Positions 1 to 28,449 of a DNA stretch of 64,000 nucleotides are shown one piece after another. Under the pieces are notes generated by a model. That model did no database searches and was not told where the DNA came from. It was given only the letters and a program-made list of their open reading frames with translations. This DNA comes from Candidatus Heimdallarchaeum aukensis. Its GTDB lineage: Archaea > Asgardarchaeota > Heimdallarchaeia > Heimdallarchaeales > Heimdallarchaeaceae. Every line of letters starts with the position of its first letter. Position 1 is the first letter of the stretch. The DNA lies in contig CP084166.1 in assembly GCA_021513695.1 (NCBI GenBank), positions 1,024,001 to 1,088,000 on the forward strand, in the 5' to 3' direction. The position numbers and the translations under genes are program-made.

Positions 1-802
1 GCCAGAATTTTATCTCCTTACTTGTTAATTTCTTTTTAGGGGTTAGTAACACTCCTGCAGCAGGAATGTTTATCCCTAGATCTATTCCCAGCACAGCTGG
101 GGGGAGAGAAGAAGAATTCTCTTCTTTAGGAGGATAAAAAGAAGAAGGAAGAACTCTTAGTTGGAAATACACCCACCATTCATGTGTAGAACGTTTATAT
201 CTTAGTTCTAAACTTTTCACCCTCCCTTTTTTTAACTCTTTCTGGTGGAAAGTGCTCATCTCTAAAGGTAACCATAACTTCTGATGATAGGAGGTGTTTC
301 TTCTCCACGTATCTAACGAGTCTCTTATCCCCACCCACCAACGAGTGAGAGTGTTATTCTTCTCTTTAGGTAAATGGACGAGAACGAACCTCTTTGCATT
401 AATTAGTTGTCTTCTCACTCTCTTTATTGGAGGACGAGTAGAACTGGGTTTATAACCTTGTTCGTATAATTGCACAGCTATATCTCTACATTCTTGAAAT
501 TCGTTGTGGGAACAATAAGGGAACATTTTCTTCAGGTCGTGAGGAACAGTCTTTCTTCTCTCTTCTTCTTTAACTTTTGAAGTCGTTAGCGTCAATTCAT
601 CTAGTTTTCCTCTATGAACTCTTATTTTCCCTTTTTTAGTTTTAGCACATATTTTTCTTCTGTTGTGATGAATTATTCTCACATACTTCTCTATTATCCT
701 CGTGTCTCTCCCCGTTATTCTCCTTAACCTTTCCTTTTTCCTCGTCGTCAACACCTCATTCTTTATTCTCACTTTCAAGGTTTTGACGACGTCCTCCACC
801 AT
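1..802 (-). CDS. tnpB: IS200/IS605-family TnpB (OrfB)-like protein, N-terminal ~267 codons. The ORF runs off the window start, which is why it is absent from the ORF track (no stop inside the window).
   Basis: Own minus-strand translation. ATG at 800-802 gives MVEDVVKTLKVRIKNEVLTTRKKERL...FPYCSHNEFQECRDIAVQLYEQGYK...RYKRSTHEWWVYFQLRVL...PAVLGIDLGINIPAAGVLLTP with no stop down to position 1. The KTLKVRI start resembles the TnpB N-terminus (K.YKFRLYPT) and GIDLGI resembles the RuvC-I motif. A GTG at ~691-693 is an alternative start. Confidence 0.55.
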   Translation of the reverse strand, partial: MVEDVVKTLKVRIKNEVLTTRKKERLRRITGRDTRIIEKYVRIIHHNRRKICAKTKKGKIRVHRGKLDELTLTTSKVKEEERRKTVPHDLKKMFPYCSHNEFQECRDIAVQLYEQGYKPSSTRPPIKRVRRQLINAKRFVLVHLPKEKNNTLTRWWVGIRDSLDTWRRNTSYHQKLWLPLEMSTFHQKELKKGRVKSLELRYKRSTHEWWVYFQLRVLPSSFYPPKEENSSSLPPAVLGIDLGINIPAAGVLLTPKKKLTSKEIKFW

Positions 803-960
803 TCTTTTCCTTCCTTCTTTTCTTTTTCTGTTTATTTTTTCTCTTGTTTTTTCTTCTTATCTTTTTTTATTCTACTTTTTTTCCCTATAAAAACCCCTCT
901 CCTCTTTCTCCTCTCCTTTCTTCTCTTTTTTCTCTCCTTCTTCCTCAACAACTGTAAATT
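700..960 (+). repeat. Strand-asymmetric polypyrimidine (CT-rich) low-complexity tract, purine-rich on the minus strand.
   Basis: Seen directly as runs such as ctcctttcttctcttttttctctccttcttcctc. The short ORFs 702..890 and 832..1059 are composition artefacts. Confidence 0.8.
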
Positions 961-973
961 ACGTGAAAAATAG

Positions 974-2553
974 ACACATGGTGACACAGGAAAAATAAAA
1001 TGGAAATTTAAAACTGGGGGATCAATAAGAGCATCTCCAGCTCTAGGAGATCTTAACAATGATGGCTATCTGGATATAGTTATAGGGTCTTCTGATTCTT
1101 ATTACTATGCATTTAATGGAAGAACTAGGACAATCCTCTGGACACTCAAGACAGAACTAATAATAGGGGGAACTGCTCCAACATTGGCAGACGTTGATGG
1201 GGATAACGAACTAGATGTCCTACTTAATGGTAAAAATGTGTATCTTGTTGGAGGAAGAAAGGGCAATTTAATCTCTATTTATAATCAAAATGAAGAGGTT
1301 GGAACTTCTATCACTGTTGGTGATTTGGATAATGATGGCAGTTTTGAGATGATATATGGTTCCAAAAGTGGAAACGTTTTTTGTTATACGATTACTAATT
1401 CTGATAAAACAAGTTATAGGATCTATTGGCAGGGGGATGGTGGTGATTTCTTCAATTCTGGAAACAGTTTTACAATAGATAAAGATGGAGATACTGTTTC
1501 TACTTTCTCTGAAAAAATTATTGGAACAGACCCAGAAAAAAGGATACGGATGGAGATTTTCTTATAGATGGATATGAAATATCTGCTACTAAAACAGACC
1601 CCTTAGTTCAAGATTCAGATAATAATAATATCGGAGACCAGAATGAAGATTTTGATGGTGATGGGTTAACAAACCTAGAAGAATATAAGAAAAAAACAGA
1701 TCCTTTGAGTAGAGACACAGATGAAGATTTTATACCAGATAAAATTGATATTTTCCCAATTTTGTTTCCAGAAGGTTTAATTTATCTCTCTCTATTCTTT
1801 CTTTTATCAATATTAATAGTTTCTACAATAGTAAAAAAGAGAATAGAAAATAAAGGCGATAAAAATGAAAGTCTTATTCTTAAATTTAAAATGAAAAGAA
1901 ATCAAATATTATCAGAGATATCTTGGAAAGGCTCTTATAATAATTACAAAAGTGTTCATTTACAAGCTTTTAGATGGTTTGGAATTTTTGCTATTTCATC
2001 TGCAATAATGATTAATTTTATCATTTATCCACTTTTTAAAACAGAAATTGTTTACCATGATATTGTAAAAACAAGCTATTCTACAGTTATCTATGTTTTA
2101 ATTAATGTTATTTATTTTGCGTTATTTTATTTATTAGGTTCTGGTTTTTACTCGCTAGGGTTTTCAAGTAATGGAGTAACTTTTAGCTATGATTCTATTG
2201 CTACAAACTTGTTTCTTTCTTCTCTTATCATTTTAAGCATTTCTTTCGTAAAAGTATCAATAAACTTAATTTTACTTCCAATTTTAACTTATTTACTTAC
2301 ATCTGCTTTCATCACACTTTATAATATACGAAAGGAAAAGATTACTAATAGTAATAATCTCTTAAACTTTGTTTTCATCCTTTTTCCAATATCTTTTCTA
2401 TCTCTTTTATGGTATCAAACGCTTTCTTTCTATTTTGCTATTCCACAACAAATTTTGAGGATAATTTCTTTGATAACAGGAGTGTTAATGTTTCTTCTAG
2501 CACTAGAAATCTTTACATTATCTACTCTGAATTCTCGTGAAAAAACAAAATAA
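974..2553 (+). pseudogene. Surface protein remnant with FG-GAP-like beta-propeller repeats, thrombospondin-type-3-like Asp-rich Ca-binding repeats and a C-terminal polytopic membrane domain. It is 5'-truncated with no start before TTG 1184, and it is frameshifted at an A6 run.
   Basis: The frame is open from 974, just after TAG 971-973, and encodes GDLNNDGYLDIVIGS, ADVDGDNELDVLLNG and GDLDNDGSFEMIYGS blades without any start codon. ORF 1184..1567 ends ...TDPEKRIRMEIFL*. Reading the A6 tract 1536-1541 as A7 joins it to the frame of ORF 1705..2553, giving ...TDPEKKDTDGDFLIDGYEIS...DFDGDGLTNLEEYKKKTDPLSRDTDEDF..., followed by a ~240-aa multi-TM tail. Confidence 0.55.
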
Positions 2554-2990
2554 AGAGCATTTGAAATCTAACAATTCTAGTACTCCTTTCTAATTTTTTT
2601 ATCTCACATAGATAATAGTTAGTTGTAATGTTTGAAAACAGGTTGTGAATAAAGTAATAATAGCTCCTCTGTCATTGATTATGCAATAAGTATAATCTTC
2701 CATATTCTTGACATTACATCTTATCTCTCAAATATGATTATCTATATGAACTCATTTCTTTAAACAAACTATCTTCATTTGCTTATTTTTGTAAATAGTA
2801 CATAATTTCCTATTATTAAGACAACAAAAATCTCCTAAAAAGTTCGGTAATACATGATTGAAAGAAGTCGATTGATGGAGAAATCCTGGTGATTAACTTC
2901 TTGAGAGATACTAATTAATTATTTTCGAGCAAATGCTCAAGAAAATGATTATTCTTCTTGGAACTCTTTAAACTACAAGACAGAGTAATT

Positions 2991-4031
2991 TTATGCTCTT
3001 TCACATTTATTTTTTTCATTATTTTCTACAATACATAGTTCTAGAAGTATATCATACGTTTTTATCATCTCTCTCATAGTTTTTAACATTATTGGGTAAA
3101 GACGCATAATACTATGATTCTTTGTATATTTATAATCTGAATGATAATTAGGATAACGCGAAGCACCAACATGTTTTTCCAAATTCATGCTTAAAATAAC
3201 TATATATGCAAACAGTAGTATAAGATAAAGATAACTTTCTATTTGTACTAACCAATCTTCTTTCTGAATTTGTGTGATAAATTCTTCTCTCAACATTCTT
3301 CGCTCATCAGTTTGCAATTTGATATTATATTCTTGTTCGATTGTTTGAATGACATAGTCTGTTATGCTAATGAACTCTTCTTTCACAATTTTATCAAAAT
3401 TTTCTTTTCTTATGGATTTTATTCCTTTCCTAAATAATGAAAACAGCTTGTTGTATTTAATTAATATTTCCTTTAATGTAGTGTGTTCAAGATACAGAGT
3501 TTCTTCTGATTTCCTTTTTTGCTCATAATCACTCAAATATTTATCAATTGCTTCTATAATGCTTAAAAATCCTTCTCTTTGGTTATCATTAGAATAATCA
3601 GCTAAAGATTCATAGAGATCTTTTAGTTTTTCGAAGAAGAATTTAGTAAAAGTATGTCCAACTTTTATAAGCCGTTCAGTTTGACACAGTCCAGTAAGTA
3701 GAAGTAGTGATTTTCCTAATTTCTCAACAGATTGTTGGAGGAAGAAAATAGACTGTGCATATAGTTTCTTGTGATATAGAATTTTTGAAGCTCTTAAATC
3801 CTCTTCAGCAGTATCTAACAGTCCTAAAGCTGATATTAAATCTCTCTTTTCTGGTGGGATCTCATACTGTGATCCATATTTTAATTGCCATATTAATTGC
3901 CTTTTGATATCTTCTATATCTGTTTCTTGTAATGCAATTTTGTCATTATTATCATTCATTAAATAGCACTGATGGTTAATATTTAAATAATTAATGGCAA
4001 CTATTATCATAATGCAATAAAAATCGAGCAT
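2991..4031 (-). CDS. HEPN-domain protein. The likely true start is the internal Met MNDNNDK near 3959.
   Basis: DLRASKILYHKK carries an Rx6H motif. It is followed by AQSIFFLQQSVEKLGKSLLLL, matching the QxxEKxxK helix typical of HEPN. Confidence 0.5.
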   Translation of the reverse strand: MLDFYCIMIIVAINYLNINHQCYLMNDNNDKIALQETDIEDIKRQLIWQLKYGSQYEIPPEKRDLISALGLLDTAEEDLRASKILYHKKLYAQSIFFLQQSVEKLGKSLLLLTGLCQTERLIKVGHTFTKFFFEKLKDLYESLADYSNDNQREGFLSIIEAIDKYLSDYEQKRKSEETLYLEHTTLKEILIKYNKLFSLFRKGIKSIRKENFDKIVKEEFISITDYVIQTIEQEYNIKLQTDERRMLREEFITQIQKEDWLVQIESYLYLILLFAYIVILSMNLEKHVGASRYPNYHSDYKYTKNHSIMRLYPIMLKTMREMIKTYDILLELCIVENNEKNKCERA

Positions 4032-4183
4032 CTGCTCTTTAAAATGAGAAACTATTTTATATTAAAAACTCTTAATTGGTTTTAAAACATGATAATTAAA
4101 GAAAAAAGAATAATTAAATCCTTCTATTTAACTATAAGGAGGAGTAAATAAACATAAAAAAATTGTGAGTAGAAGGGAAATAT

Positions 4184-5419
4184 ATGTCATTTAATTTTGA
4201 AGTTAAAAATACAATTGCATCCTTAAGGCAATCAAGGTTGAAGCTTGGCAATGTAGAAATAGAAACACCAAATTATATAATGACACATATTGAAACTAGA
4301 CGACTTACTACAGGGTATAATCTTGTTGGGAGTCGTGAGCCTAACCCAAAACTGAATGAATTAATTAGTGATCATATACCTGATAGATTAACTGCACAAA
4401 AAATATTTGAAAACTCCGATGAAATAGAAAAATTATGTAACAAGCTAGATAACTTGACTAAATCTGATCGGATGAATTTTGTTCAATTTCGTTTGAAGGC
4501 TGGAAATGAAATTAGCAAATATGAATTATGTCAAATTGTTAGGTTGCAGTCTGATATGAACAAATTTTCCATTATAACAATACCTGATCCTACTTGTTCA
4601 TATAATAACTCTTGGATTGATTCTATGGAAGCAGCTCTCTATGAGGCTAAGGTTTCACAAGAAGTTGGAACATCGGAACTATTTATGCCTACTGTTTCGC
4701 TTGCTCAGCCTTTATTGGATGTGGAAAAGAAAATTTCGTGGTTAATAGATAAGCAAGTTCCATCCATTGGATTAAGAGCACACGGGCCACATTTTCCAGC
4801 TACTTTGCACAAATCAACAAATCTGATTACACAATCAGATAATCCGATTTGGATTCATCTGTTTGACTTATCCAAAAAATATAAGAATGTGTCCCAACTG
4901 CATTTGGCACCTTTGACAAGTGTTGATACTATTTCCTTGAAAAAAAAACATGGGTATAGCAGCAGCAAGAAAAATATTATGGATGGTTTATTGCCAACAC
5001 CAGAGAATATATCTTTAGAACCAACTGCTAGGGAAATAGAAGAACAAAAGGTCAGAGAGATAAAGCGTAGTCAACGGTTTTTGTTTGAGCAATTAGCTTT
5101 AGGTTACATTTCTATAAATGAGCGGACTAAATGGATTGGTCATGAACTTTCTTGTACTTGTCCCATTTGTAAAAAGACAAAAGATATAGATACCTTTAGG
5201 ATTTATCTCTCAACACATGATAAAAACTCACTTCTACAAGTGCATGAATATACTGGTTTTAACCAGGAAATGTTGGCAATTAGAAAAAATATTAGGGATA
5301 ATGATATCTCAGAGTATTTTAGACAAAAAATATTAGTAAAACGACATAGACGCAAACTATCTAAAAGATATCCTGAGCTTGAAAGGTTTATTAATCCGCC
5401 TTTAGATAGTTACTTCTGA
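4184..5419 (+). CDS. TGT-superfamily transglycosylase (queuine/archaeosine tRNA-ribosyltransferase fold) without a PUA domain. It is a DpdA-like candidate.
   Basis: The N-terminus MSFNFEVKNTIASLRQSRLKLGNVEIETPNYIM matches the TGT start (F.F.i..R.g.l.l..g.ieTP.fMpv). The zinc motif SCTCPICKK...STHDKNSLLQVHEY has the CxCxxC...H pattern. The tail VHEYTGFNQEMLAIRKNIRDNDISEYFRQ parallels bacterial TGT (EHNIAFYQQLMQKIRDSISEGRFSQFAQ). IPDPTCSY and IHLFDLS are candidate equivalents of the catalytic TDSGG and MFDCV segments. Confidence 0.65.
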   Translation: MSFNFEVKNTIASLRQSRLKLGNVEIETPNYIMTHIETRRLTTGYNLVGSREPNPKLNELISDHIPDRLTAQKIFENSDEIEKLCNKLDNLTKSDRMNFVQFRLKAGNEISKYELCQIVRLQSDMNKFSIITIPDPTCSYNNSWIDSMEAALYEAKVSQEVGTSELFMPTVSLAQPLLDVEKKISWLIDKQVPSIGLRAHGPHFPATLHKSTNLITQSDNPIWIHLFDLSKKYKNVSQLHLAPLTSVDTISLKKKHGYSSSKKNIMDGLLPTPENISLEPTAREIEEQKVREIKRSQRFLFEQLALGYISINERTKWIGHELSCTCPICKKTKDIDTFRIYLSTHDKNSLLQVHEYTGFNQEMLAIRKNIRDNDISEYFRQKILVKRHRRKLSKRYPELERFINPPLDSYF

Positions 5420-5447
5420 GATATTTATCCAAGAAAAGGTGATATAA

Positions 5448-6059
5448 ATGAATCAAAAAGCGACAAAAAATATGTCGGAAGAAGAAAATAAAATGATAAA
5501 AAAATGGATCTATTTAATGTTAGCTGCAGATAACAATAGTTCAATCAAAGGAAAAGTTAGAATAACTAAAGAATTCTTTTTGATTACCAAGCAGTTAGCT
5601 CCTGAAGTATTTAAGGCAGCTCAATTCTATCCTTATCACTTTGGGCCTTATAGTACTCGTTTTGCTGTTTGTGTTAACGAACTGATTAAAAGTAATCATA
5701 TTAATATATTGTATAAAAGTGGAGATTATCATTATGAGTTGTCAAAAAAAGGTTTAGTTGAAGCTAAAAAATATTTGAAAACAATCCCTAAGAAAGAAAA
5801 ACAAGTAATTGATGATATTAAGAAAAAAAGTAAGTCTCAATCTTTAAAATCAATGTTAAAAGAAATTTACGAAAAATATCCTAAGTATACAGTTCGTTCT
5901 GTTATTAAAGCAGATCTTGATACTAAAAAAGTAAACTTAGATTCTGTAGAAAAAGTAGATGATAGTTCAGGGTTTGTTTCAAGTGATATGAAACATGAAC
6001 GTGACATCGTCTTGAAAGGTGAAGCTGCAAAAAGATTTCTAGAAATAATCTCAAAGTGA
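5448..6059 (+). CDS. Putative antitoxin partner of the downstream GNAT toxin. It is unusually long at 203 aa and has a DUF1778/TacA-like C-terminal tail.
   Basis: It ends 8 nt before the GNAT gene. Its C-terminal KHERDIVLKGEAAKRFLEIISK resembles the DUF1778 tail (ERD.VLL..EA..RFL..L). A possible winged-helix region lies at the N-terminus. Confidence 0.4.
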   Translation: MNQKATKNMSEEENKMIKKWIYLMLAADNNSSIKGKVRITKEFFLITKQLAPEVFKAAQFYPYHFGPYSTRFAVCVNELIKSNHINILYKSGDYHYELSKKGLVEAKKYLKTIPKKEKQVIDDIKKKSKSQSLKSMLKEIYEKYPKYTVRSVIKADLDTKKVNLDSVEKVDDSSGFVSSDMKHERDIVLKGEAAKRFLEIISK

Positions 6060-6066
6060 TACATCA

Positions 6067-6570
6067 ATGACTAGTCATGAAGTAGAGTATAAAATTGAGA
6101 AACTAAATATATCTCATACTCTATTAGACTTTGATTGTGGTGATGAAAACGTTAATGAGTATTTTAATCAGAGAAGCTATGAAGAAGTTGAATTAGGTAA
6201 TGCTCAAATTTATGTGTTTATACTTGTGAATACAAATGACCTCATAGGTTTCTATACGCTTTCAATGAAATCTGTTCGTTTTAACTATGAAGGAAGAGAA
6301 TATGATCAACCTGTGTGTTTGCTTGGGCAAATTGGAGTAAATAAAATTTTCCAAAATAAAGGTTGGGGAACAATATTAATTAAAGATGCAAAGAAGAGAT
6401 GTAAAAAAATCTCAGAAGATATTGGAAGCATTGGTTTATTATTGGAAACATATAAAGAAGAATTAGTGAACGGGTTTTTCAAGAAACTTGGTTTCGAATA
6501 TGTTGAACATCACAAAATGAAAAACCGAGGTACAAGATATAGATTGTTTTGCAAACATGAACATGAATAG
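6067..6570 (+). CDS. GNAT-family acetyltransferase, TacT/AtaT/KacT-like toxin.
   Basis: HTLLDFDCGDENVNEYFNQRSYEE...DLIGFYTLSMKSV matches the H..FdCG...LN.yL...A...ivGyytL signature of GNAT toxins. The acetyl-CoA loop is QNKGWGT. The protein is 167 aa. Confidence 0.7.
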   Translation: MTSHEVEYKIEKLNISHTLLDFDCGDENVNEYFNQRSYEEVELGNAQIYVFILVNTNDLIGFYTLSMKSVRFNYEGREYDQPVCLLGQIGVNKIFQNKGWGTILIKDAKKRCKKISEDIGSIGLLLETYKEELVNGFFKKLGFEYVEHHKMKNRGTRYRLFCKHEHE

Positions 6571-6624
6571 AAAAAGGAGAAATGGATATAAAACAGCTTA
6601 CTCTATTTAAAGCTTAAAGCTATT

Positions 6625-6666
6625 TTTGAATATTATTCTTTACTTTTTTCTAGCTCTAATCCTCTC
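6625..6666. repeat. Copy 1 of a 42-bp direct repeat, tttgaatattat[t/c]ctttacttttttc[t/c]agctctaa[t/c]cctctc.
   Basis: It is 39/42 identical to 9084..9125. All three mismatches are T/C transitions. Confidence 0.8.
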
Positions 6667-6901
6667 TTCTTGTTTAATTACTGTAAGTATAATTACTTGT
6701 TCGAGTGTAAGATTGTTGAAGTTCAGTTCAGTACCTAAATCATCCAAAAAAATAGTTATTTAATAGGAATTTATATTTAACTCGAAAAAATCCCATTTTT
6801 AATATTTCTTTATGAAAGTATTTTCAATAAACGGAAAGTTTGCTACAAGAACTCGAAGAGTTTTCTATTACTATTGCAATCCTTCTTTTTTAAAATGTAA
6901 T

Positions 6902-7354
6902 TTATTGTATAGAATCTATGAACCTCTTTAAATCCTCTTCTGGTAAATCAGTATATTTCTTATATCTCTTGAATTTTTTACTGAAGAATTTTATATCAAC
7001 ATAAATTTGTATTTTCTCTTTGCCTTCAATTTGTTTTCTGTCTGTTACAGGAAAAGTTGCCCAATATAACTTGTATTCTTTTGAATGCTTAAGTTCATAT
7101 TGTTGTTGTTTTGGTCTTATCTTTCCTTGATACTCAACACTATCAATTATCATTTTTATGTCCAACAGAAACATGAGTGTAGAAGCAGTTCCAGCATTAA
7201 TTATGTAAAGTCCCCATTCTTTTGCTTGTGGGTTGAATATTGGTCCAGATAAGTTTAGCGAAGCTCTTTTTGGTCTAAAGAAGGATAGGTATACTGTTAC
7301 AACTGACAGAAAAATAGATATTGTAGAGAATATTAATGAGACTACTTCTGTCAT
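6902..7354 (-). CDS. Hypothetical protein with an N-terminal transmembrane helix, 150 aa.
   Basis: ORF with hydrophobic N-terminus VVSLIFSTISIFLSVVTVYLSFF and no recognisable motif. It lies inside the direct-repeat-bracketed cassette. Confidence 0.4.
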   Translation of the reverse strand: MTEVVSLIFSTISIFLSVVTVYLSFFRPKRASLNLSGPIFNPQAKEWGLYIINAGTASTLMFLLDIKMIIDSVEYQGKIRPKQQQYELKHSKEYKLYWATFPVTDRKQIEGKEKIQIYVDIKFFSKKFKRYKKYTDLPEEDLKRFIDSIQ

Positions 7355-7589
7355 AAATACTAATACACATTATCAATTAATTAACAGTTCGGTATATTGT
7401 TTCACCCATGGCACATTCACCCCAAGATAAAATACTGAACCATTAGATGTTGGATCAATTGGTAAGGAGATCCTAAAGATTAAAGAGTAGTTTGATTTAG
7501 AGATTATTACTATAAATAATACTTATGTTGCTTTGTTTTGTAATGTTAAAAAACAAGTGATAAGCCAAATTTAAGGTTACTAAGTCTAA

Positions 7590-8933
7590 TTATTCCTCAT
7601 GAAGTAAAGGTGTTTCTAAAAGGACATTTGTTAAGTCGATATTGTTAGGGTTTATTTTTTTTGGATAAACAAAAGAGAAGTGGCAGACGTAAGATTTGTT
7701 GTTTCTTATTATTTTGATCCAAACATTTTCTGGTTTTTCCATTATTATTCTTAACATCCATGATGTATTTTCTTCTGATACTCTAAGCAAGGCATAAAGA
7801 GTTCTTTTTTTTAATTCTAGTGTCTTATACTTTTCGAATTTTTCTTTTAACTGTTCTGCGTTCCCCCAAAAAAGGTTGGGAAAAACTTTTTCATCTTTAT
7901 CAAATACTATTGTTATCTCTTTTATTTTATTGTACTCTGAAATATCTTTCAAGATTTCCTTCTTTTCATCAATAGGGATTCTTTGTTGAATACCTCTAGA
8001 TTTTCTTAAAATTTGATCGAGGAGAAACCATATTGAATTGTCCATATATTTAATAAACGAATTAATTTCCATTTTAAATGCAACTTCTGTTTTTTGTATT
8101 TCTACATTACCTTTTTTATTTATCCAACCGTTTATTTTAAAATAAGAAAAACGAGGATCGACATATTCGAAAGATTGTTTGGGTGGAAAGGTTTTTCCAT
8201 TTTTTCTTGCCAAAGTTATTGCATCTTCTATCCATAATTTGAAATTGGTATTTGCTGACCTTGCGGGAATTTTGTCAATAATAACCCATATCTCATCGTT
8301 ATTGAAATCCAGAACTTTTTTACCACTATGTGTAACAGTATTACGTAAGTATAGAAACACACTGAATGCAAGTGATGGATTGATATATTTATCTGAATAG
8401 GGCTCGTAATGTCTAATTAGTTCATCAAAAATACGTTCATACCTATATCGTTTTAATTCGGGAAGATTATTTAAATACGCTTCTGTGAATCTTGAAGTTA
8501 GTTCCAAAAGTTCCAGACCAGCTGAAACATATGTTTCAAAGAGACATATAAAAAGGAACTTTATAGTTGGTATTTTAGTCCAATCAAATCGTATTTGATA
8601 ATACTCTATTTGGTCTCTTACTAATTGGAAGTACGCAAGTCTATATTTAATGCTGTTTAATGTTTCAATATACCTTCCTTTTTTCACTAATTCATTAATA
8701 TGAAAAACTAGTAAACTGTAGTCTCTTGATTCGTTATGTGCTTCCAGATAGTATGAAAACATACTCAAAACGCCAAGACTTGTATCAAGAACATGCCGAG
8801 AAATACTAATTTCTTTTTTTTCTTTTTTTTCTTTTAACGAATTAAAAAACTCATATTCGTTAAGCAAAATTTTTAACAAAAGTTCATGAGATTCTTTACT
8901 TTCTATTTCTTGCTTATCCTTATTTTGATTCAT
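7590..8933 (-). CDS. Hypothetical protein, 447 aa.
   Basis: Long ORF inside the direct-repeat-bracketed cassette. No motif recognised by eye. Confidence 0.5.
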   Translation of the reverse strand: MNQNKDKQEIESKESHELLLKILLNEYEFFNSLKEKKEKKEISISRHVLDTSLGVLSMFSYYLEAHNESRDYSLLVFHINELVKKGRYIETLNSIKYRLAYFQLVRDQIEYYQIRFDWTKIPTIKFLFICLFETYVSAGLELLELTSRFTEAYLNNLPELKRYRYERIFDELIRHYEPYSDKYINPSLAFSVFLYLRNTVTHSGKKVLDFNNDEIWVIIDKIPARSANTNFKLWIEDAITLARKNGKTFPPKQSFEYVDPRFSYFKINGWINKKGNVEIQKTEVAFKMEINSFIKYMDNSIWFLLDQILRKSRGIQQRIPIDEKKEILKDISEYNKIKEITIVFDKDEKVFPNLFWGNAEQLKEKFEKYKTLELKKRTLYALLRVSEENTSWMLRIIMEKPENVWIKIIRNNKSYVCHFSFVYPKKINPNNIDLTNVLLETPLLHEE

Positions 8934-9083
8934 TTGTTATTAATATTATTTTATAACAAAATAAAAAAGTTTAGTTAAATATTACTGTGCAATTCTTCCT
9001 CTATTTTGATAAATAAATGAACTAGAATAATTTTCTTTCCAAGAATAAACTGCCTTTAAGGATAGTTAATAAGTAGTTAAAGG

Positions 9084-9125
9084 TTTGAATATTATCCTTT
9101 ACTTTTTTCCAGCTCTAACCCTCTC
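9084..9125. repeat. Copy 2 of the 42-bp direct repeat.
   Basis: It matches 6625..6666. It is immediately followed by the CT-rich tract 9126..9300. Confidence 0.8.
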
Positions 9126-9300
9126 CCCTCTCCCATCTTTACAATCCTTCTTTCCCCTGAAATTATTTTTTTTGTTTCCTTTTTCTATATTCTCTTTTCT
9201 TTCTAACCAACCTTATACTCTTTTTCTTTACCTTTGTTCTTGTTATTGCTTTTGTTACTGTTTTTAGTCCTAGTTCTGTACTATTAGTTCAGTCTCTTTT
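9126..9300 (+). repeat. Polypyrimidine (CT-rich) low-complexity tract.
   Basis: Seen directly as cctctcccctctcccatctttacaatccttctttcccc..., with the same compositional style as 700..960. ORF 9085..9267 is an artefact. Confidence 0.7.
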
Positions 9301-9500
9301 TTAGGATAATCTGTGGATAGTAATTCTTCAAGAAATTAGAGGAAAAATATGAAATCAATAATAAACTTTCTCTAAATTGTCTTAAGGTCTTCTTCTAGTT
9401 ATAACCTCCTTACAAGAAGATGCTTTACTTTGCAACAAAATGAAAAATAAACTAAAGAAACTATTCATAGGGTTTAAATACTTATTTCTCGTATAGGCTA

Positions 9501-10637
9501 ATGATGGAAATAAACAAAATTTATCTTAAAGATTGTATAGAAGGTATGAAGGAACTTCCTGAAGATAGCATAGATTTAATATTTGCAGATCCACCATATA
9601 ATCTTCAATTGAAAAATGAATTATATCGACCTAATCAGTCATTAGTGGATGCTGTAAATGATGAATGGGATAAATTTTCATCATTTGAAGAGTACGATGA
9701 TTTTACAAAAAAGTGGTTATCAGAATGTAGGAGGGTGTTAAAAAAAACAGGTTCTATATGGGTAATAGGGTCGTATCACAATATATTTAGAATCGGAAAA
9801 ATAATGCAAGATTTAGGTTTCTGGATATTAAATGATATCATTTGGATAAAAACAAACCCTATGCCAAATTTTAGAGGTACTAGATTTAATAATGCACATG
9901 AAACTCTGATTTGGGCTTCGAAAAATGAAAAAGCTAAACCTACTTTTCATTATAAAGCTATGAAGGTATTTAATAATGATAAACAAATGCGAAGTGATTG
10001 GTATATTCCAATTTGTATAGGAAAAGAAAGGTTGAAATTAAACGGAAAAAAATTACATTCTACACAAAAACCTGAAGCATTGCTATATAGAATAATAATA
10101 TCAACATCAAATGTAAATGATATAGTGCTTGATCCTTTTATGGGTTCAGGTACTACAGCTGCAGTAGCAAAGAAACTAAGAAGGAATTTTATTGGTTTTG
10201 AAACAAATGAAATATATGTAAAAGCAGCAAGAGAGAGAGTTGTTAAAGTCATACCCATGGATCCTGACATTTTGGATTATAAAGTGGAAAAAAAACCACC
10301 AAAAGTTCCTTTTGGTACTTTAGTAGAACATAATTATATTAAAGCTGGAGATTGGCTTTATTCAAAAGATATGAGATATAAAGCAATAATAAAAGCAAAT
10401 GGGTCAATTGAATATCAAGGTAAAAACGGTTCTATTCATAAAATTAGTGCTCAAATTTTAAATAAAAAAGCAAATAATGGATGGGATTTTTGGTATGTAA
10501 AAGAAAACGATAATCTTGTATCGATTGATACTATTAGAAGAAATTATGCAAGTAAAAACATGAATTATATGAATGATGAAATAGATATGAGAAATAAAAA
10601 AGTAACAGACAAACTTTTAACTAATTACTTGGAATAA
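9501..10637 (+). CDS. CcrM/M.HinfI-family beta-class N6-adenine DNA methyltransferase (probable GANTC specificity) with the CcrM-type C-terminal domain.
   Basis: Motif IV DLIFADPPYNLQL precedes motif I VLDPFMGSGTTAAVAKKL. Near-colinear matches to Caulobacter CcrM as I recall it include WVIGSYHNIFRIG, LGFWILNDIIWIKTNPMPNFRGTRFNNAHETLIWASK, KQMRSDW, HSTQKPEALLYRII, and C-terminal PKVPFGTLVE...GSIHKISAQIL...NGWDFWYV. Confidence 0.9.
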   Translation: MMEINKIYLKDCIEGMKELPEDSIDLIFADPPYNLQLKNELYRPNQSLVDAVNDEWDKFSSFEEYDDFTKKWLSECRRVLKKTGSIWVIGSYHNIFRIGKIMQDLGFWILNDIIWIKTNPMPNFRGTRFNNAHETLIWASKNEKAKPTFHYKAMKVFNNDKQMRSDWYIPICIGKERLKLNGKKLHSTQKPEALLYRIIISTSNVNDIVLDPFMGSGTTAAVAKKLRRNFIGFETNEIYVKAARERVVKVIPMDPDILDYKVEKKPPKVPFGTLVEHNYIKAGDWLYSKDMRYKAIIKANGSIEYQGKNGSIHKISAQILNKKANNGWDFWYVKENDNLVSIDTIRRNYASKNMNYMNDEIDMRNKKVTDKLLTNYLE

Positions 10638-10642
10638 TCTTC

Positions 10643-11512
10643 GTGCTTACTAATTATCTTCCCTATGAAGTTTTTAAAAGAATATTAACAAAGACAATCT
10701 TTCAAAATGCTAAAATAAGTTTATTAGAAAAAGTTGCTAAATATCCTTCAAGATATACAGGTTTATTTAGGCCTACCAAACCTAAATTAAAATTAATCCA
10801 GAACATTACTCAATCAAATGAAATTCTATTTGGCGATGCTTTTGAGATCATAATTAATGAATATTTGAATAGATTAGGTTTCTCTCCAATTAAAAAAAAT
10901 TATTCCTATAATGGAAATGACTTAATGTTTGATCAGATTGTAGGAAAAGAAAATACTATTATTTACATAGAACAAAAAATAAGAGATGATCATGATTCAA
11001 CAAAAAAAAGAGGTCAAATAGAAAATTTTGAGAAAAAGGGTGAATTATTATTGAAACTATATCCTGATTTCAAAATTACTGGTATAATGTATTTTATAGA
11101 CCCAAATTTAAAGAAAAATCGAAGATATTATATGCAAGAATTACAAAGAATAAGTACTCAATTTAATTTTGAAACTCATCTCTTTTATGGAAAAGAGTTT
11201 TTTGAATGGATAGGAAAAGATGAAATCTGGTTAGAAATAACAAGCTATTTATCAAAGTGGAAAGAAGAGATACCTGATTTTCCCACAATTAATTTTGATG
11301 AAAATCCCGAAGAATCTTTTGAGGAAATCAAGCATCTACAACCTAATTTACTGATAAAGCTTCTAAGAAATGATGCAATATGTAAGGAGATTTTTCCCGA
11401 ATTGTTCCCGGAAAAAACGACATTAAATCTACTTCTGGAATACTATATTCATGAAAGAGAAAAAAATAAGACTAATACAATGGTTATTGAACATTTAAAA
11501 AAAGTGTTGTGA
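10643..11512 (+). CDS. Putative Type II restriction endonuclease cognate to the CcrM-like methyltransferase.
   Basis: GTG start 6 nt after the methyltransferase stop. A candidate PD-(D/E)xK core lies at DLMFDQIVGKENTIIYIEQKIRDD (D...ExK). No other homology recognised. Confidence 0.45.
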   Translation: MLTNYLPYEVFKRILTKTIFQNAKISLLEKVAKYPSRYTGLFRPTKPKLKLIQNITQSNEILFGDAFEIIINEYLNRLGFSPIKKNYSYNGNDLMFDQIVGKENTIIYIEQKIRDDHDSTKKRGQIENFEKKGELLLKLYPDFKITGIMYFIDPNLKKNRRYYMQELQRISTQFNFETHLFYGKEFFEWIGKDEIWLEITSYLSKWKEEIPDFPTINFDENPEESFEEIKHLQPNLLIKLLRNDAICKEIFPELFPEKTTLNLLLEYYIHEREKNKTNTMVIEHLKKVL

Positions 11513-12322
11513 AAAAAAATCTAAAATCACAAAAAAGATCTATATAATTGTACGATTTTTTGTTCAAAAAAAAACTATCACCGTTTGATTGACATGTTAT
11601 AAAAATAGTTTCTGAAGAAAAACCTTTACATCCATTAACTCTCAGATGCTTTATACCATTATTTTGAAATAGATACTACATGCTTGAATTAAAATGAATT
11701 TCTGGACTAGTTGATTTTCCTTTCTTAATTATAAATTATATAATTTTCCTAATTGAATTGAGAGATAATTTTTCTTTTTCAAACCAAGCATGATCTATTA
11801 TAGGAGGTTTTAAACGGAGAAGATTCAAACTTTGGATATATATTCTACATATATTATAAATATTGTTTGATATTCATCATTTGAGTTTCTCAATAAAAGA
11901 TTATTCCATATTTTAGTTTCTAGTTTGAAGATTATGAATTATTTAATAAATGTCTTAAATTCGGGATACCTTTCTTTCATATTTTCCTCAGAATCATGTA
12001 ATGGAATTTGTAGTGTTCCTTTTACTAATATTCTATATTCCTCAAGTTTAAGAATATGATTTGATTATAGCAGTGTGCCATTACTTGTTATGTTTGTTGT
12101 TATTTTTTTCGATAAATGTAGAGATTCTGGTAAAGAAATAATGTTTTCAGTTATGAATTGTATATTATCATGAAATCTAACCTTCTTAATTTAACTCAAA
12201 TTAATTAAGTAGTAAAGATAATAAAAGAAGGTATCTAAATGTTTATTGCGGAGATTTATTATAGGGTTTTTAATTTTCATCTCCCACATCGAATAATACG
12301 CATTTATCAATAAATCCTTATA

Positions 12323-13342
12323 TTAATTAGAGCAATATGAAGTTTTATTTGTGAAAATTTCAGGATCATCTAGTTCTCTCAATCTTTTAAGTGTAACACT
12401 TTTCCATTTATCATAAAAATCAACTAAAATACCTTCTTTTTCCTTTAATGTTGGTTTTCCTGTATCATCATCCATAATAAATTCAAATCCGTAATCAATC
12501 TTAAAATTAAATTGATCTGTATGCAAAACTCTTTCATGAGGAAACTTAATATCGTTATCCAAAGATGAACAAAAATTATAATGTCGAACTTCAATATGAA
12601 TTGATGAGTTTGAATATAAACCAAGCCAGTCCATTATATTTTTCTTTGTTGATTGAGGATTATATCTATTTGCTTTCGGTGTTGTAGTACAAATAATAAA
12701 ATTGCCATTTCTTATATTCTCCTTTTCAAATTGTTTTACTAACCAATTTAATGTTTTATAGTGTCGCTTATTATTAACTAAATTTACACCAAGATATCTG
12801 TCCACAATCATTACTTCCTTTGCAAATCTGAATATCTTTTTGATAAATCTTGAATGCACTTCTGTTAAATTATTTAATTCTGCTAAGTTTAATGATGTAT
12901 TCTGTATTTTATTGTAGAAATCTATTTCTGTAATTAATTCCTCTGATACATAGCTACTACTCAATTTTCCAATTTCACACTTATTTCTACAATTATTGTA
13001 AGGAAGTATTATCCAATCTGGATTTTCTCTGCTTTGAATTTCACAATAAGCTATACATTCATCTTTTTTTTTCTTTCCTTCAATTTTAATTTCAATTATT
13101 CTTCTATTATTTTGCATATTCGAAAGCATTTCTTCTATGATGAGTCTTTCTTCTATTGGTATAAGTGAAAGGGTTTTTGATTTAATAGGTAAACTAAAAC
13201 CTTCTGGTTTTAGAAGTATACCGTTTTTTCTAAGGGAAATCAATAAAGAAACTAATATTTTAGAACGATACATAATAAGCGTAGAATTTTCAGAATTGTC
13301 ATCTAAAATTTTAGGAGATAATACAAATGTCTGTACCGTCAT
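12323..13342 (-). CDS. Partner protein of the ABC ATPase, 339 aa. It carries a Cys4 element with a possibly degenerate HNH-like scaffold.
   Basis: Its start overlaps the upstream stop (ATGA, 13339-13342). ECIAYCEIQSRENPDWIILPYNNCRNKCEIGK has Cx3C...DWIILP...Cx3C, reminiscent of the HNH DHIIP/CxxCN arrangement but with W in place of H. Confidence 0.4.
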   Translation of the reverse strand: MTVQTFVLSPKILDDNSENSTLIMYRSKILVSLLISLRKNGILLKPEGFSLPIKSKTLSLIPIEERLIIEEMLSNMQNNRRIIEIKIEGKKKKDECIAYCEIQSRENPDWIILPYNNCRNKCEIGKLSSSYVSEELITEIDFYNKIQNTSLNLAELNNLTEVHSRFIKKIFRFAKEVMIVDRYLGVNLVNNKRHYKTLNWLVKQFEKENIRNGNFIICTTTPKANRYNPQSTKKNIMDWLGLYSNSSIHIEVRHYNFCSSLDNDIKFPHERVLHTDQFNFKIDYGFEFIMDDDTGKPTLKEKEGILVDFYDKWKSVTLKRLRELDDPEIFTNKTSYCSN

Positions 13343-15249
13343 TCAAATAGCTCCTTATAACTTAGATCAAAGAAATCATCTGGCCATTCATTTATAAAAT
13401 TACCATGTTTGTCAAATTCGATAGGAACTATATTAGCTCCTAGTTTTGTTTTTTCAACAAATATAATTGATATAAGTTTTGGACTTATTTTCTTTTTCCT
13501 AATGAGTTTTTTGATTCGTAGAATTAATTGTTGACTATGAGTTTCAATTATAAATTGTTTTGATAAATTCCTTTTAACATGTTCAACAAAAAATTCTCCC
13601 AATTCAGCTTGCAATCTTGGATTAAGATGTATCTCTGGTTGTTCTATTAAAAGAATTTCATTTGGTTTATTTGACATTATCGTTTGTACAAGAATGGGGA
13701 GAACCTGACTCACACCAAATCCAATATCCGGTAATGCCACCGGATATTTTGTGATATTATCTTCGAATTTCAAGGAATATACCCCTGATAGTTTGTCTTT
13801 ATCTGCTGTATATGAGACTGTGTAACCGATTTTTAGTTTTTTCAACCAATTATTTAGTTCATTTATTTTATTTTTATATGAATAGATAAAATCTGCTGTT
13901 TTTGATCCTGAAACACCTACATTAATAGGTCTACTCCCTCCAAATATGTAATATCGAGATGGTTTATCTCTAAGAGGACCAATAAAAGTAATGCTCTTCA
14001 TCAATTCAATGAATTGATTTCTATTCTCTTCAGTCACGTCATAATCAAAATATAAATTCTTTTTTCCATGTTCAAGTTTAAAAAACGTGTTGATTTTAAG
14101 TAATTCACCTTTAATTGGATTACCAACAAATTCAATAGATAAATTATGATGAATAAACTTAATTAATTTGTTAATTAGATCTGTTTCTATCTCCGATGGG
14201 TCTTTAAACATAATAATTCTAAATAATTTCTCAATTTTCATATTAATTGATTCTTCAATTAGAATCCTAAAATCATGATCGATTAAAATATCATCTTTTA
14301 TTTCATTTAAACCAATTTCAACCTTTTTGCAAATTTTTTCAATTATTTTATCTTTTTTTAACAGAAAAAATTTGTTTTTTTCTAATTCTCTTCTAATTTT
14401 TTCTACTATATTTTTAATTTCAATTTTTTTCGCTTGACTATTTTCCTGATAAATTTTCAATATAGTTTCTATAGGAACTTTAATATTAATCGTAGGAATT
14501 TTATCGTTATCAAAATGAATCTTCTTTTCAATTTTTTCTTCTATATCAAAGACATCAATTTTAAATTTCTCTTCATATGCAGAATAAGAGATTATAAATG
14601 GTGTATCAATGTTTTCAACAATTGTGATTTTCTTGTATCCTCCAGATATTGACTCTCTCAAAAACGGTAAAAGAATCATCGGTATAACTCTTTCTGTACT
14701 TATTTTTGAAAGAGAACAAGTATATTTTATCCGCTGATAAATCCTAGAATTTTCTGTTTTGCAATATACTAATTTTGCTGAAATTAATGATTTTTCAATC
14801 TTTTTGCCATAATTTCTAGATATTCCCCATATTATTTTATCTAAAAGAATGTAAGGTCTCTCTTCAATCTTTTTTGAAATGTATGTTAAGTTGATTTTGA
14901 ATTTTTTAAAAATCCTTTCCTTGTATGGTGAAATATGAAGATAATCTGAGGATCGCCACTGTAACCCAATTTCAACTCTTTTTCTAGTATCATGACCAAA
15001 AACAATTTCTTCGAAAGGTCCAATATCAACATAAGTCCCTTGATGTAGAAGAACATTATTTGGGTCATTGTCTTCTATAGTTTGTTTTAAGGCTAAAAGT
15101 GATTTCAAAATAGATGATTTTCCACTACTATTTTCTCCAAATATCAGTGTAATCGGTTTACATGGTATTCTAGAGCCCTTTTTTCCAAAGGCTTTAAAAT
15201 TTCTTAAATAAATTTCAGTTAACATGAACAAACACCAAGTTTCTTTCAT
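13339..15249 (-). CDS. ABC/OLD-type ATPase of the AAA_15/AAA_21 kind, similar to the ATPases of Septu PtuA, PARIS AriA and AbiL.
   Basis: N-terminal LTEIYLRNFKAF...ITLIFGENSSGKSSILKSL is the Walker A. C-terminal ILLIEQPEIHLNPRLQ is the Walker B/D-loop, and FIIETHSQQLI is the H-loop. A long insert separates the two halves. Confidence 0.8.
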   Translation of the reverse strand: MKETWCLFMLTEIYLRNFKAFGKKGSRIPCKPITLIFGENSSGKSSILKSLLALKQTIEDNDPNNVLLHQGTYVDIGPFEEIVFGHDTRKRVEIGLQWRSSDYLHISPYKERIFKKFKINLTYISKKIEERPYILLDKIIWGISRNYGKKIEKSLISAKLVYCKTENSRIYQRIKYTCSLSKISTERVIPMILLPFLRESISGGYKKITIVENIDTPFIISYSAYEEKFKIDVFDIEEKIEKKIHFDNDKIPTINIKVPIETILKIYQENSQAKKIEIKNIVEKIRRELEKNKFFLLKKDKIIEKICKKVEIGLNEIKDDILIDHDFRILIEESINMKIEKLFRIIMFKDPSEIETDLINKLIKFIHHNLSIEFVGNPIKGELLKINTFFKLEHGKKNLYFDYDVTEENRNQFIELMKSITFIGPLRDKPSRYYIFGGSRPINVGVSGSKTADFIYSYKNKINELNNWLKKLKIGYTVSYTADKDKLSGVYSLKFEDNITKYPVALPDIGFGVSQVLPILVQTIMSNKPNEILLIEQPEIHLNPRLQAELGEFFVEHVKRNLSKQFIIETHSQQLILRIKKLIRKKKISPKLISIIFVEKTKLGANIVPIEFDKHGNFINEWPDDFFDLSYKELFE

Positions 15250-15317
15250 TCACACTCTTGATGAATTCTTTACAAATTTATGTAATAAAAATAAAAACTT
15301 TTCTGGAATATCTATGT

Positions 15318-18300: not shown

Positions 18301-18779
18301 GTTGGTTCTATAAATATTTCTAATTCTGTATCTGGTTTTTTCCATTCAAGATTTGCATTTAGTAATACCGATATTGAACATTGAAATCCTGTTTTTATCA
18401 TTCTTAAGGCTGTATATCCCACTTTTTGTTCTTCCAAAATATCTGTGATTTCTCTTTCATCAATCTTTAAGTCTGTTCTAAACATTTGCCTTTTTTGAAA
18501 ATAATTTTTAAATATTAAGTACGAATCTGTGATGCTTGATTTTCTGATAAATAAATCGATTGCTTGTTCTATCTGTATTCCAATTACATTTTCAAGATAT
18601 GAATTCAACTCTATTCTATTTTCAATATCTAAAATAGGTGGTTCAATTCTTATGCCTACAAAAGGTTTAATGTTGTAGCATTTTGATTTTGACGCAATTC
18701 CAAGAAAGAATCCAAATTCAAGTGCTTCTCCATATATTAATGGTGCTATTCTATTAATTTTCTTTTCGTAATTTACCAT
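15318..18779 (-). CDS. Large (1153 aa) P-loop NTPase or helicase-like protein with a possible N-terminal PD-(D/E)xK nuclease fold.
   Basis: Central Walker A IIINGSSQGVGKNYVIANY, Walker B-like YMFIFDELTNSG, and a possible motif III at VITDASIT. The N-terminus has ELEIFIEP...KKPDFIIIRKK...EFLCIGDIKSY (E..PD...DxK-like). Its start lies 1 nt after the stop of the upstream 973-aa gene. Confidence 0.55.
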   Translation of the reverse strand: MVNYEKKINRIAPLIYGEALEFGFFLGIASKSKCYNIKPFVGIRIEPPILDIENRIELNSYLENVIGIQIEQAIDLFIRKSSITDSYLIFKNYFQKRQMFRTDLKIDEREITDILEEQKVGYTALRMIKTGFQCSISVLLNANLEWKKPDTELEIFIEPTFREKKPDFIIIRKKTSNNQEEAFNYEMNQIEFLCIGDIKSYIFFVNMTKERLLQDYIEQLIVEDFSKEKLRKLNLHKNKKIPARDFYRIATALQKYLKVFSYAQLYYNETQNYNSEIEVQIVLPGAISSFHIKSETDLRKILRFLCNLIPSTIVETEFGKKKEYILEDFERRRIFELFMSGKISMRIKEKNNKRMYFFEGTRGEELKIILKDEKTEFIEAYPETKEKIQPSIVKRQSVTRNEIENVRKEHEKNFLKLLTNDCYNIIINGSSQGVGKNYVIANYIKKLAKTKKNFTILYFCPRITTLIQTKDKIQRLIKNDIEKNVHLELIIGKREKELIRDPITLKGYETIFSETGNRLKKALEKQGQKVILVSSQALDYFLKQSYNWKLLFTKTYMFIFDELTNSGPTVAKNFIDLLIEARNRLMVNNNINVPRFVITDASITSMKLVISMLNTLVDPNSKKWMTQFQITNFNEDIQEPEEFKIINTPIKGIFLRYLLNFNIDYCAASFICEGKYEEEINFKKIFEILDKLVKKSRIDNRKKSFEKYLQEGKVIFYVNNKQFVDSLVEYLHLNNYDAVSITHDSRDTLLIEETPKKNIVGTSSLAFGTTYSWHEILIILPPFPLKTDYGSTTYFDSMINLEYFRQVIKRMRGEETDLKPRLVSMISALNKNATLKDQNIKFHQLRSFIRDILINNNEHVLPVFSRSKISERTKRKFSLFGRVSKRAFSVDNIYLDDFLKNYFPSIKTALNHFRLYPSPEFILTFNEAGRWNDMTIPSYLFYKVTNQQIAKGFRVTVKAYDKTDKQEILNYLEKPRNLYTINKGLNYLEKMVRTYYGRNVKKDEKSRKYPSLYHFINSTNNAFSLAKKFSKLLSPPIIFAGDSYLLITLDIIEDSDIFLSEDIEKATIERLRALSSPLSSIYFGDMSLLEEPMRVIIESGNFKSFTYGYVVSHPMFGKIPKQVHTLLGEALSFSTLRKNVFLLPKIIKYLSEN

Positions 18780-18780
18780 T

Positions 18781-28250: not shown

Positions 28251-28449
28251 TTTATAGATTCACAATAGTAAGCAACAGAAAAATTGATTTACGATAGCAA
28301 CTCCGAAATTTTATAACACTAGCTACGATCTATAATATTGCTTACTTTCTGAACTAAAAAAGTAATCTTGCTCAATAAAAGGAAGTTATAACTAAACTAA
28401 ATATCACTTGACATAAGAAAAAAAATTAATCAATTTTGTTTCACGTTTT

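Follow-up and report, generated by a model that had tools for sequence, protein, structure and literature searches.

The 64-kb window analyzed here (positions 1,024,001 to 1,088,000 of contig CP084166.1 of Candidatus Heimdallarchaeum aukensis; coordinates below are those of the window unless another sequence is named) contains two 42-bp direct repeats, termed copy 1 and copy 2, which enclose a 2.4-kb unit with two genes. One of the two encodes a 150-amino-acid (aa) membrane protein and the other a 447-aa protein resembling the HEPN superfamily. We tentatively read the two 42-mers, with a probability of roughly 0.4, as the attL/attR-type scar of a self-contained module that was inserted at a pre-existing 42-bp site. 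The finding is real but modest, and the att-type insertion reading is unproven. Whatever its own origin, the pair of 42-mers is a substrate for homologous deletion (pop-out) of the module.

Identification of the Direct Repeats

Copy 1 and copy 2 agree at 39 of the 42 positions, and the mismatches are all of the T/C type, as had been described in the initial annotation of this DNA. They fall at repeat positions 13, 27, and 36, with copy 1 carrying T and copy 2 carrying C each time. When up to three mismatches were allowed, the 42-mer occurred twice in the window and never in 100 dinucleotide-preserving shuffles. The pair was also the sole short repeat with an identity of at least 90% in a whole-window repeat scan; the other repeat families were at most 83% identical, which is the chance level of AT-rich DNA (the GC content of the window is approximately 27-31%), except for a 300-nt pair in two DUF2804 genes. 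A weaker look-alike pointed out at approximately 674-716 belongs to the background, as it matches the 42-mer at 22-24 of the 42 positions, has a score reached or surpassed at 27 or more further places in the window, and lies inside a minus-strand TnpB-like coding region. No third copy was found in approximately 100 kb of Heimdallarchaeum DNA, namely the window, the orthologous locus of Ca. H. endolithica (L004; CP084167.1), and two JGI metagenome contigs (L013 and L014). The window accounts for two copies and the 20.5 kb of H. endolithica sequence for one, with none in the other loci examined. A scan of public genome and metagenome contigs, among which the source genome was absent, for the 22-nt core of the repeat yielded one chance match each with unrelated flanks; this pattern would miss the variant of the copy in H. 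endolithica. Viral contigs contained no match to the 22-nt core or to a 25-nt pattern of the left half. The 2.4-kb spacing of the two copies and the lack of others in the approximately 100 kb examined favor a local event over a dispersed motif.

In both copies and on either side, the identity drops from 93% to the background within 1-2 bp. Neither a MAFFT alignment of the two neighborhoods nor local alignments of all four flank combinations revealed flank homology beyond that of shuffles, and longer gapped homology around the copies was searched for and rejected. Because the homology ends abruptly on four sides, the pair appears to represent a duplication of defined length (att or target) and not a decayed larger one. 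One could suppose that 42 bp is the last recognizable piece of a larger segmental duplication or a gene-conversion patch and has no mechanistic meaning. The highly rearranged island and the AT-biased decay (C to T) in copy 1 would suit such a history, but neutral decay would leave graded similarity in the flanks in place of so abrupt a drop, and we regard this explanation as very unlikely.

The interval 6667-9083 contains exactly two open reading frames (ORFs), both on the minus strand, as originally annotated, with non-coding margins of 235 and 150 bp. Copy 1 lies between convergent gene ends, 55 bp past the stop codon of a GNAT acetyltransferase gene and 236 bp past that of the 150-aa gene. 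Copy 2 lies between divergent gene starts, upstream of both the 447-aa gene (at a distance of 150 bp) and a DNA methylase gene (375 bp). The CT-rich tract reported after copy 2 was recovered as a stretch at 9119-9204 with at least 85% C+T in 80-nt windows, and no intact ORF was found on the purine-rich strand of the tract listed in Table 1.

The sharp and coincident edges, the uniqueness and close spacing of the copies, and the complete two-gene unit between them argue for a single local insertion event, as do the modular, recombination-prone nature of the island and a step in interspecies divergence at copy 1 (see below for the details). From these observations, we infer the following course of events. 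The 42-bp site would first have lain between the GNAT module on one side and the C+T-rich tract, the linker, and the restriction-modification (R-M) block on the other. A 2.4-kb module would then have entered that site, bringing its own non-coding DNA on either side along with the genes for a single-pass membrane protein and for a putative RNase of the HEPN-like type. The insertion would have duplicated the 42 bp, with the recombinase being supplied in trans or since lost, and the scar is now probably inert.

Table 1. Coordinates of the repeats, the genes around them, and the segments compared with the H. endolithica locus (L004).
Feature	Window position	Strand	Position in L004	Remarks
42-mer copy 1 (T,T,T variant)	6625-6666	+		TTTGAATATTATTCTTTACTTTTTTCTAGCTCTAATCCTCTC; direct reading and repeat finder
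42-mer copy 2 (C,C,C variant)	9084-9125	+		TTTGAATATTATCCTTTACTTTTTTCCAGCTCTAACCCTCTC; direct reading and repeat finder
150-aa orphan protein	6902-7354	-		one N-terminal transmembrane helix, residues ~4-26 (hydropathy)
447-aa protein	7590-8933	-		N-terminal HEPN-like helical domain and C-terminal beta-rich domains
Pyrimidine-rich (C+T) non-coding tract	9126-9300	+		directly abuts copy 2
Non-coding linker, ~100 bp	9345-9447	+		kept in three haplotypes; core TTAAGGTCTTCTTCTAGTTATAACCTCCTTACAAGAAG at 9382-9419
Three-gene module: 411 aa (weak TGT-like), 203 aa, 167-aa GNAT acetyltransferase	4184-6570	+		left neighbor
N6/N4 DNA methylase with RAMA domain (378 aa) and 289-aa HinfI-like nuclease	9501-11512	+		right neighbor; Pfam 3e-70; PF09520
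TnpB/Cas12f-like insertion sequence, 5' part	1-977	-		GIDLG RuvC motif; PF07282 on the L004 homolog
DUF2804 gene pair	27680-27979, 28449-28748			83% identity over 300 nt
Homologous segment	978-7178		4913-11112	97.5% identity, unbroken through copy 1
Replaced segment	7179-9313		11106-11488	replaced by a 383-bp element
Homologous segment	9314-9447		11483-11616	86% identity
R-M and downstream genes				replaced by other genes in L004
Divergence segment	1251-2650			~7%
Divergence segment	2650-5000			~1.5%
Divergence segment	5000-6649			0.18%, 3/1650 differences
Divergence segment	6650-7178			3.0%, 16/529 differences

Sequence Properties of the 42-mer

The 42-mer has no detectable secondary structure. 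When both copies and both strands were folded as DNA, the z-scores against shuffles ranged from -0.68 to +1.02, and no stem spanned the 42-mer. A hairpin, an attC site, and an intrinsic terminator were rejected accordingly, as was a known RNA or tRNA, since neither Rfam (at the gathering threshold and at E ≤ 1) nor ARAGORN returned a match. We also rejected a coding remnant on the minus strand, which would read ...RGLELEKSK(G/E) followed by a stop codon: two of the three differences between the copies are synonymous in this frame, a coincidence of phase with a probability of approximately 0.78 by chance, and the upstream frames are rich in stop codons. No inverted repeats were found just inside or outside the direct repeats (in the comparison of 6667-6786 with 8964-9083, 93 of 300 shuffles reached the score).

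The 42-mer may instead be a functional cis-element or a tiny gene that is retained in two copies, such as an operator serving a common regulator, a core promoter, an oligo-T terminator (T6), or a small hydrophobic ORF (TTG-NIILYFF...). Archaeal core promoters and operators are about 42 bp in size. On the plus strand, the T5/T6 runs of copy 1 lie 55-80 nt past the stop codon of the GNAT gene, the place expected for a terminator, and the sister species has copy 1 in almost the same form. Furthermore, both copies open plus-strand ORFs of 45 and 60 codons that start with LNIILYFF. However, the continuations of these ORFs are unrelated, two of the three interspecies changes in the copy-1 ORF are non-synonymous, and there is no sign of purifying selection. 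Nor is copy 1 better conserved than its left flank, in which 0 of 54 positions differ between the species. The two copies lie in opposite contexts, and thus a strand-specific role as promoter or terminator would be sensible for one copy only; on either strand, one of the copies is antisense into a gene. The 42-mer contains no good B recognition element (BRE)/TATA combination and probably does not serve its neighbors as a core promoter, because the methylase gene has its own TATA-like box (TTTAAATA at 9476-9483, 18 nt upstream of the ATG) and an AT-rich, TATA-like stretch immediately precedes the 447-aa gene. The motif is also absent downstream of the homologous GNAT module in a distant ENA metagenome contig (L010). 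Altogether, we consider a cis-element or tiny gene rather improbable. With no hairpin, Rfam match, or tRNA in the repeat and with separate TATA-like boxes for the neighboring genes, no alternative function of the 42-mer is apparent.

The Two-Gene Unit and the 447-aa Protein

The 447-aa protein corresponds to K9W45_04240 of Ca. H. aukensis with 100% identity. A word-indexed search retrieved no protein other than the query itself, and an exhaustive HMMER search detected 32 remote homologs, the best of which was 36% identical. Most of the homologs are 300-360 aa long and cover residues ~45-310 of the query. In an alignment of 26 homologs, E133, R197, and H202 were invariant, and the latter two belong to 'RNTVTH', an Rx4H motif. 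The protein possesses both the Rx4-6H motif conserved in the HEPN superfamily and the all-alpha HEPN fold; the structure-based annotation recommended earlier has indeed pointed to a HEPN-like fold. Neither a curated HEPN family nor any other entry of Pfam or PADLOC matched the 447-aa protein or any of 25 homologs, and no sequence match to the 447-aa protein was found in PDB. We examined a possible kinship with the Pfam-HEPN protein encoded in the same island, and hhalign indicated no relation. The 447-aa protein, a putative RNase, is best described as a member of an unannotated HEPN-like family with approximately 30 metagenomic members.

We compared this protein with HEPN toxins and abortive-infection (Abi) effectors, namely the HEPN-MNT structures 5yep, 7ae2, and 8xdj, the HEPN domain of AbiA (8oz7), and Csm6. 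In contrast to those proteins, the 447-aa protein lacks a Pfam or PADLOC HEPN match, is much larger, bears extra N-terminal helices, and carries C-terminal beta domains that resemble PilZ or split-barrel folds. Unlike HEPN-MNT systems, it has no MNT partner, and its gene neighbor encodes a single-pass membrane protein. This neighbor, the 150-aa protein, matched nothing in Pfam or PADLOC, and its only relatives are truncated copies of the same protein in H. endolithica-type contigs.

Two of the remote homologs of the 447-aa protein are encoded on long contigs, and both of them lie in defense contexts. One is accompanied by BrxC-like, R-M, ParB_N, and AAA_15/21 genes, and the other adjoins an OLD-TOPRIM ATPase. 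The HEPN-like fold, the Rx4H motif, and the remote relatives in defense islands make a role of the cargo in defense plausible, and the earlier suggestion to this effect is now reasonably supported. No repeats flank the genes of these two remote homologs, and tblastn with the 447-aa protein found no match in phage and plasmid collections. A 187-aa protein encoded beside one remote homolog was considered as a counterpart of the proteins studied here and shows no homology to either. The unit is not compositionally distinct, with a GC content of 0.29-0.30 against 0.26-0.33 in its neighbors. In a Logan contig that is 99.9% identical to the window (L025 2532-3594; SRR15988958), the 447-aa gene is called as two ORFs of 41 and 298 aa. 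This frameshift reflects either an error of assembly or a variant in the population that inactivates the HEPN-like gene.

Haplotypes of the Locus in Sister Species and Metagenomes

The GNAT protein is identical in H. endolithica, and the window was compared with the orthologous locus of this species by blastn (Table 1). The homology continues past copy 1 and covers the 3'-terminal 277 bp of the 150-aa gene. Copy 1 is kept in place (L004 10559-10600; 41/42, with one further C>T change) and was also found in Logan contigs. Copy 2 is absent from the H. endolithica locus, together with the 5' half of the 150-aa gene, the 447-aa gene, and most of the C+T tract. The 383-bp element in their place has a second, inverted copy 5 kb away (L004 16567-16949; 97.7% identity). 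Its ends contain a palindrome, TTTTACGTAA, resembling the end of the TnpB insertion sequence (IS), TTTTCACGTAATTT, and the element is probably a miniature inverted-repeat transposable element (MITE) derived from IS605/TnpB. It sits exactly where the 447-aa gene and copy 2 were deleted, with microhomologies of 6-7 bp (CATGAGT and TGGATA) at the junctions. The third haplotype is represented by the two JGI contigs, which are 99.3-99.8% identical to the window over 9345-20636 and unrelated to it left of 9345. The three haplotypes differ by replacements of whole modules, and the island is hypervariable and recombination-prone. They share the linker at 9345-9447 and differ in the modules flanking it on one or both sides. 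This linker occurs once in the window, shows no significant RNA fold, and matches no viral contig; it may mark a further boundary between modules or a further site of recombination.

The divergence between the two species changes stepwise along the window (Table 1). The step from 3/1650 to 16/529 differences is significant (Fisher p = 6e-8) and holds at near-neutral sites, with 1/370 third-codon differences in the 203-aa and GNAT genes. The first interspecies difference right of the GNAT gene falls within copy 1. Over 2650-7178, the window and the H. endolithica locus are 97-99.8% identical. Since the genome-wide average nucleotide identity of the two species is 88% (PMC8813620), this level of identity indicates that the block of the HEPN, TGT-like, 203-aa, and GNAT genes moved recently between the species. 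A recent exchange between the species, with a tract terminating at the 42-mer or close to it, would fit this pattern.

The locus shows clear evidence of activity by MITEs and IS elements, and an origin of the repeats from a transposon has to be weighed. The right part of the 42-mer (TCCAGCTCTAACCCTCTCCCC...) and the C+T tract would be the end of a degraded IS or MITE, and copy 1 would be a secondary copy of this junction of end and flank that arose by aberrant transposition or repair. The candidates are a family in L013 with TCCAGCCCTACCTCCCCCC terminal inverted repeats and the AG-rich leader of the local TnpB elements. The former is a 546-bp element (L013 348-893) with terminal inverted repeats of approximately 45 bp (TCCAGCCCTACCTCCC / GGGGGGTAGGGCTCGA), the left arm of which matches window 9108-9128 with two substitutions and two indels. 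The 42-mer plus the C+T tract scores 22 against L013 and 23 against the TnpB leader chunk, the maximum of 70 control chunks being 21. Besides the tract after copy 2, the leader of the TnpB IS is the one strongly C+T-rich stretch of the window. However, the 42-mer alone is not significantly similar to L013 (3 of 70 controls reach the score) or the IS leader (as good a score in 81 of 200 shuffles), and thus the similarity may be purely compositional. The window contains no inverted partner end, and inverted repeats are missing just inside and outside the direct repeats. A transposon end also leaves unexplained the identical sharp edges of both copies and 24 bp of supposed flank. We regard this origin as the main rival of the insertion reading, possible but on the unlikely side. 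The 546-bp element itself lies 140 bp left of the conserved linker, in a haplotype that otherwise shares 99.8% identity with the R-M block of the window, and because both JGI contigs end near it, we suggest that it is a multi-copy repeat.

Several observations weigh against the att-type insertion that we favor. No integrase or recombinase was detected by Pfam, NCBIfam, and PADLOC in the unit or elsewhere in the window (42 ORFs scanned, comprising every ORF of 100 aa or more in 1-22 kb with one exception and 27 ORFs to the right of that region), and the only transposase-like gene among the scanned ORFs was that of TnpB at 1-977. The 42-bp site is located neither in a tRNA gene nor at a recognizable gene end. 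The initial annotation had predicted an empty site with a single repeat in relatives lacking the unit. The single copy in H. endolithica is still joined to 513 bp of DNA of the unit, with homology running straight through copy 1, and the breakpoints of this haplotype (7178 and 9314) are not at the repeats; the JGI haplotype breaks at 9345 and not at copy 2. An empty site with breakpoints exactly at the repeats is seen in neither of them. The public assemblies searched contained no empty site, circular junction, or second genomic context; exact-protein look-ups (447-aa, 150-aa, GNAT, and methylase proteins, the 411-aa protein, and the 41-aa fragment) returned only this locus and the variants of it in H. 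endolithica and the JGI contigs, and no pop-out allele or circular junction was present among the assembled contigs queried. Lastly, the divergence step can be placed only to 5965-6650 and is partly due to coding constraint. The lack of a true empty site among the available loci does not exclude an older insertion. What stands of the original attL/attR proposal is a non-random, sharp-edged, and self-contained unit; a recombinase in the window and the predicted empty site were not found.

Comparison With Known Mobile Elements

The elements of archaea with SSV-type and pNOB8-type tyrosine integrases are bounded by attL/attR direct repeats, and the length of 42 bp is within the range of archaeal att cores. 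The unit described here has direct repeats at both ends as well, and it resembles those elements in that sharp-edged repeats of approximately 40 bp surround foreign-looking cargo in a host genus carrying integrative elements. In contrast to them, no integrase, no tRNA or gene-end site, and no empty site or circular form accompanies the unit, the cargo is only 2.4 kb, and the copies differ at 3 of the 42 positions. In Heimdallarchaeum, tRNA genes are the integration sites of the elements HeimV1, HeimM2, and the aloposons (PMC8813620).

A length of 42 bp is far above that of known target duplications of transposons. Neither terminal inverted repeats inside the direct repeats nor a duplication of 2-15 bp, both of which characterize target-site duplications, is seen here. 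As for IS200/IS605-TnpB elements and their derivatives, including MITEs and palindrome-associated transposable elements (PATEs), a TnpB IS at the left end of the window abuts the island, the TTTTACGTAA-ended element replaces part of the unit in the sister species, and C+T-rich leaders accompany such elements here. The 42-mer differs from them in lacking a subterminal hairpin and a significant alignment to IS ends, and the IS605 family is not known to make target duplications.

The unit is also reminiscent of integron cassettes with attC sites, including those of archaeal integrons (Ghaly et al., 2022; PMC9668308), in being a small, promoter-containing unit of one or two genes among adaptive and defense genes. 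A recurring sequence similar to a recombination site delimits it, and the preceding GNAT module ends in the same 42-mer. Unlike in integrons, the 42-mer shows no imperfect palindrome or fold of attC, no IntI is encoded in the 64-kb window, only two sites exist, and the neighboring modules are in mixed orientation. One may go further and suppose that the 42-mer is the recombination site of an undescribed cassette-exchange system, with the integrase acting in trans, that shuffles small defense modules in the islands of Asgard archaea, and that the HEPN-like/membrane protein pair is a new defense system of the abortive-infection type. Such a system would follow the logic of integrons without attC hairpins; the GNAT module and the HEPN-like module would end in the same site, and the interspecies exchange tract would stop at the 42-mer. 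We give this scenario only a slim chance.

Wu et al. (2022) reported local operon swaps between Ca. H. aukensis, which has a circular genome of 3.08 Mb, and Ca. H. endolithica (PMC8813620). The locus studied here behaves similarly, as it belongs to the same two genomes and the defense modules between conserved flanks are wholly replaced. That paper deals with CRISPR-Cas loci and large mobile elements, and in the text read this locus, the 42-mers, and the HEPN-like unit are not mentioned (PMC8813620).

Gene Neighborhood of the Repeats

The defense-type island spans approximately 2650-22330, between an FG-GAP/membrane gene and a HAD hydrolase gene. In its left part, a Pfam-HEPN protein is followed by the 411-aa/203-aa/GNAT module and the two-gene unit. 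In its right part, the methylase and the HinfI-like nuclease are followed by a 339-aa gene and a 636-aa ATPase, and then by proteins of 1153 aa (ResIII) and 973 aa. The placement of the unit between a GNAT-containing module and an R-M system agrees with the initial annotation. The 'toxin-antitoxin pair' recognized there is probably part of a candidate three-component defense system, because the 411-aa, 203-aa, and GNAT genes form a conserved module; it is kept at 69% nucleotide identity in L010 (4491-6874). The 203-aa protein is DUF4364-like and similar to PDC-M19A of PADLOC (1e-14). The 636-aa protein is an AAA_21/DUF3696 ATPase (PADLOC NsnB, HEC-03B, AriA-like).

At the left end of the window, the TnpB protein starts with MVEDVVKTLKV near 800 and is preceded by an AG-rich leader, which appears as a CT tract at 779-956 on the plus strand. 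This IS also has a TTTTTATA box and interrupts an FG-GAP gene, which is intact in H. endolithica, and synteny is back at 978. H. endolithica possesses an 80%-identical copy of the TnpB IS 4 kb away in the opposite orientation. Outside the island, two adjacent DUF2804 genes of 188 aa (truncated-looking) and 343 aa represent a local gene duplication with one partial copy.

Implications for Defense Islands of Heimdallarchaeum

The cargo of the repeats adds a new, unannotated member to the HEPN superfamily, and its setting in a defense island fits the operon-swap behavior known for both genomes. As nothing more than a scar or the relic of a transposon, the repeats would amount to ordinary genome archaeology. 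Apart from the repeats, the family of the 447-aa protein is unannotated, HEPN-like, and recurrent in defense islands, and it is a candidate for a new effector of abortive infection. Should the 42-mers prove to be genuine sites of recombination, they would delimit a mobile unit of only 2.4 kb carrying a candidate HEPN-type defense effector in the lineage of archaea closest to eukaryotes, and would offer a handle on how defense islands are rebuilt module by module.

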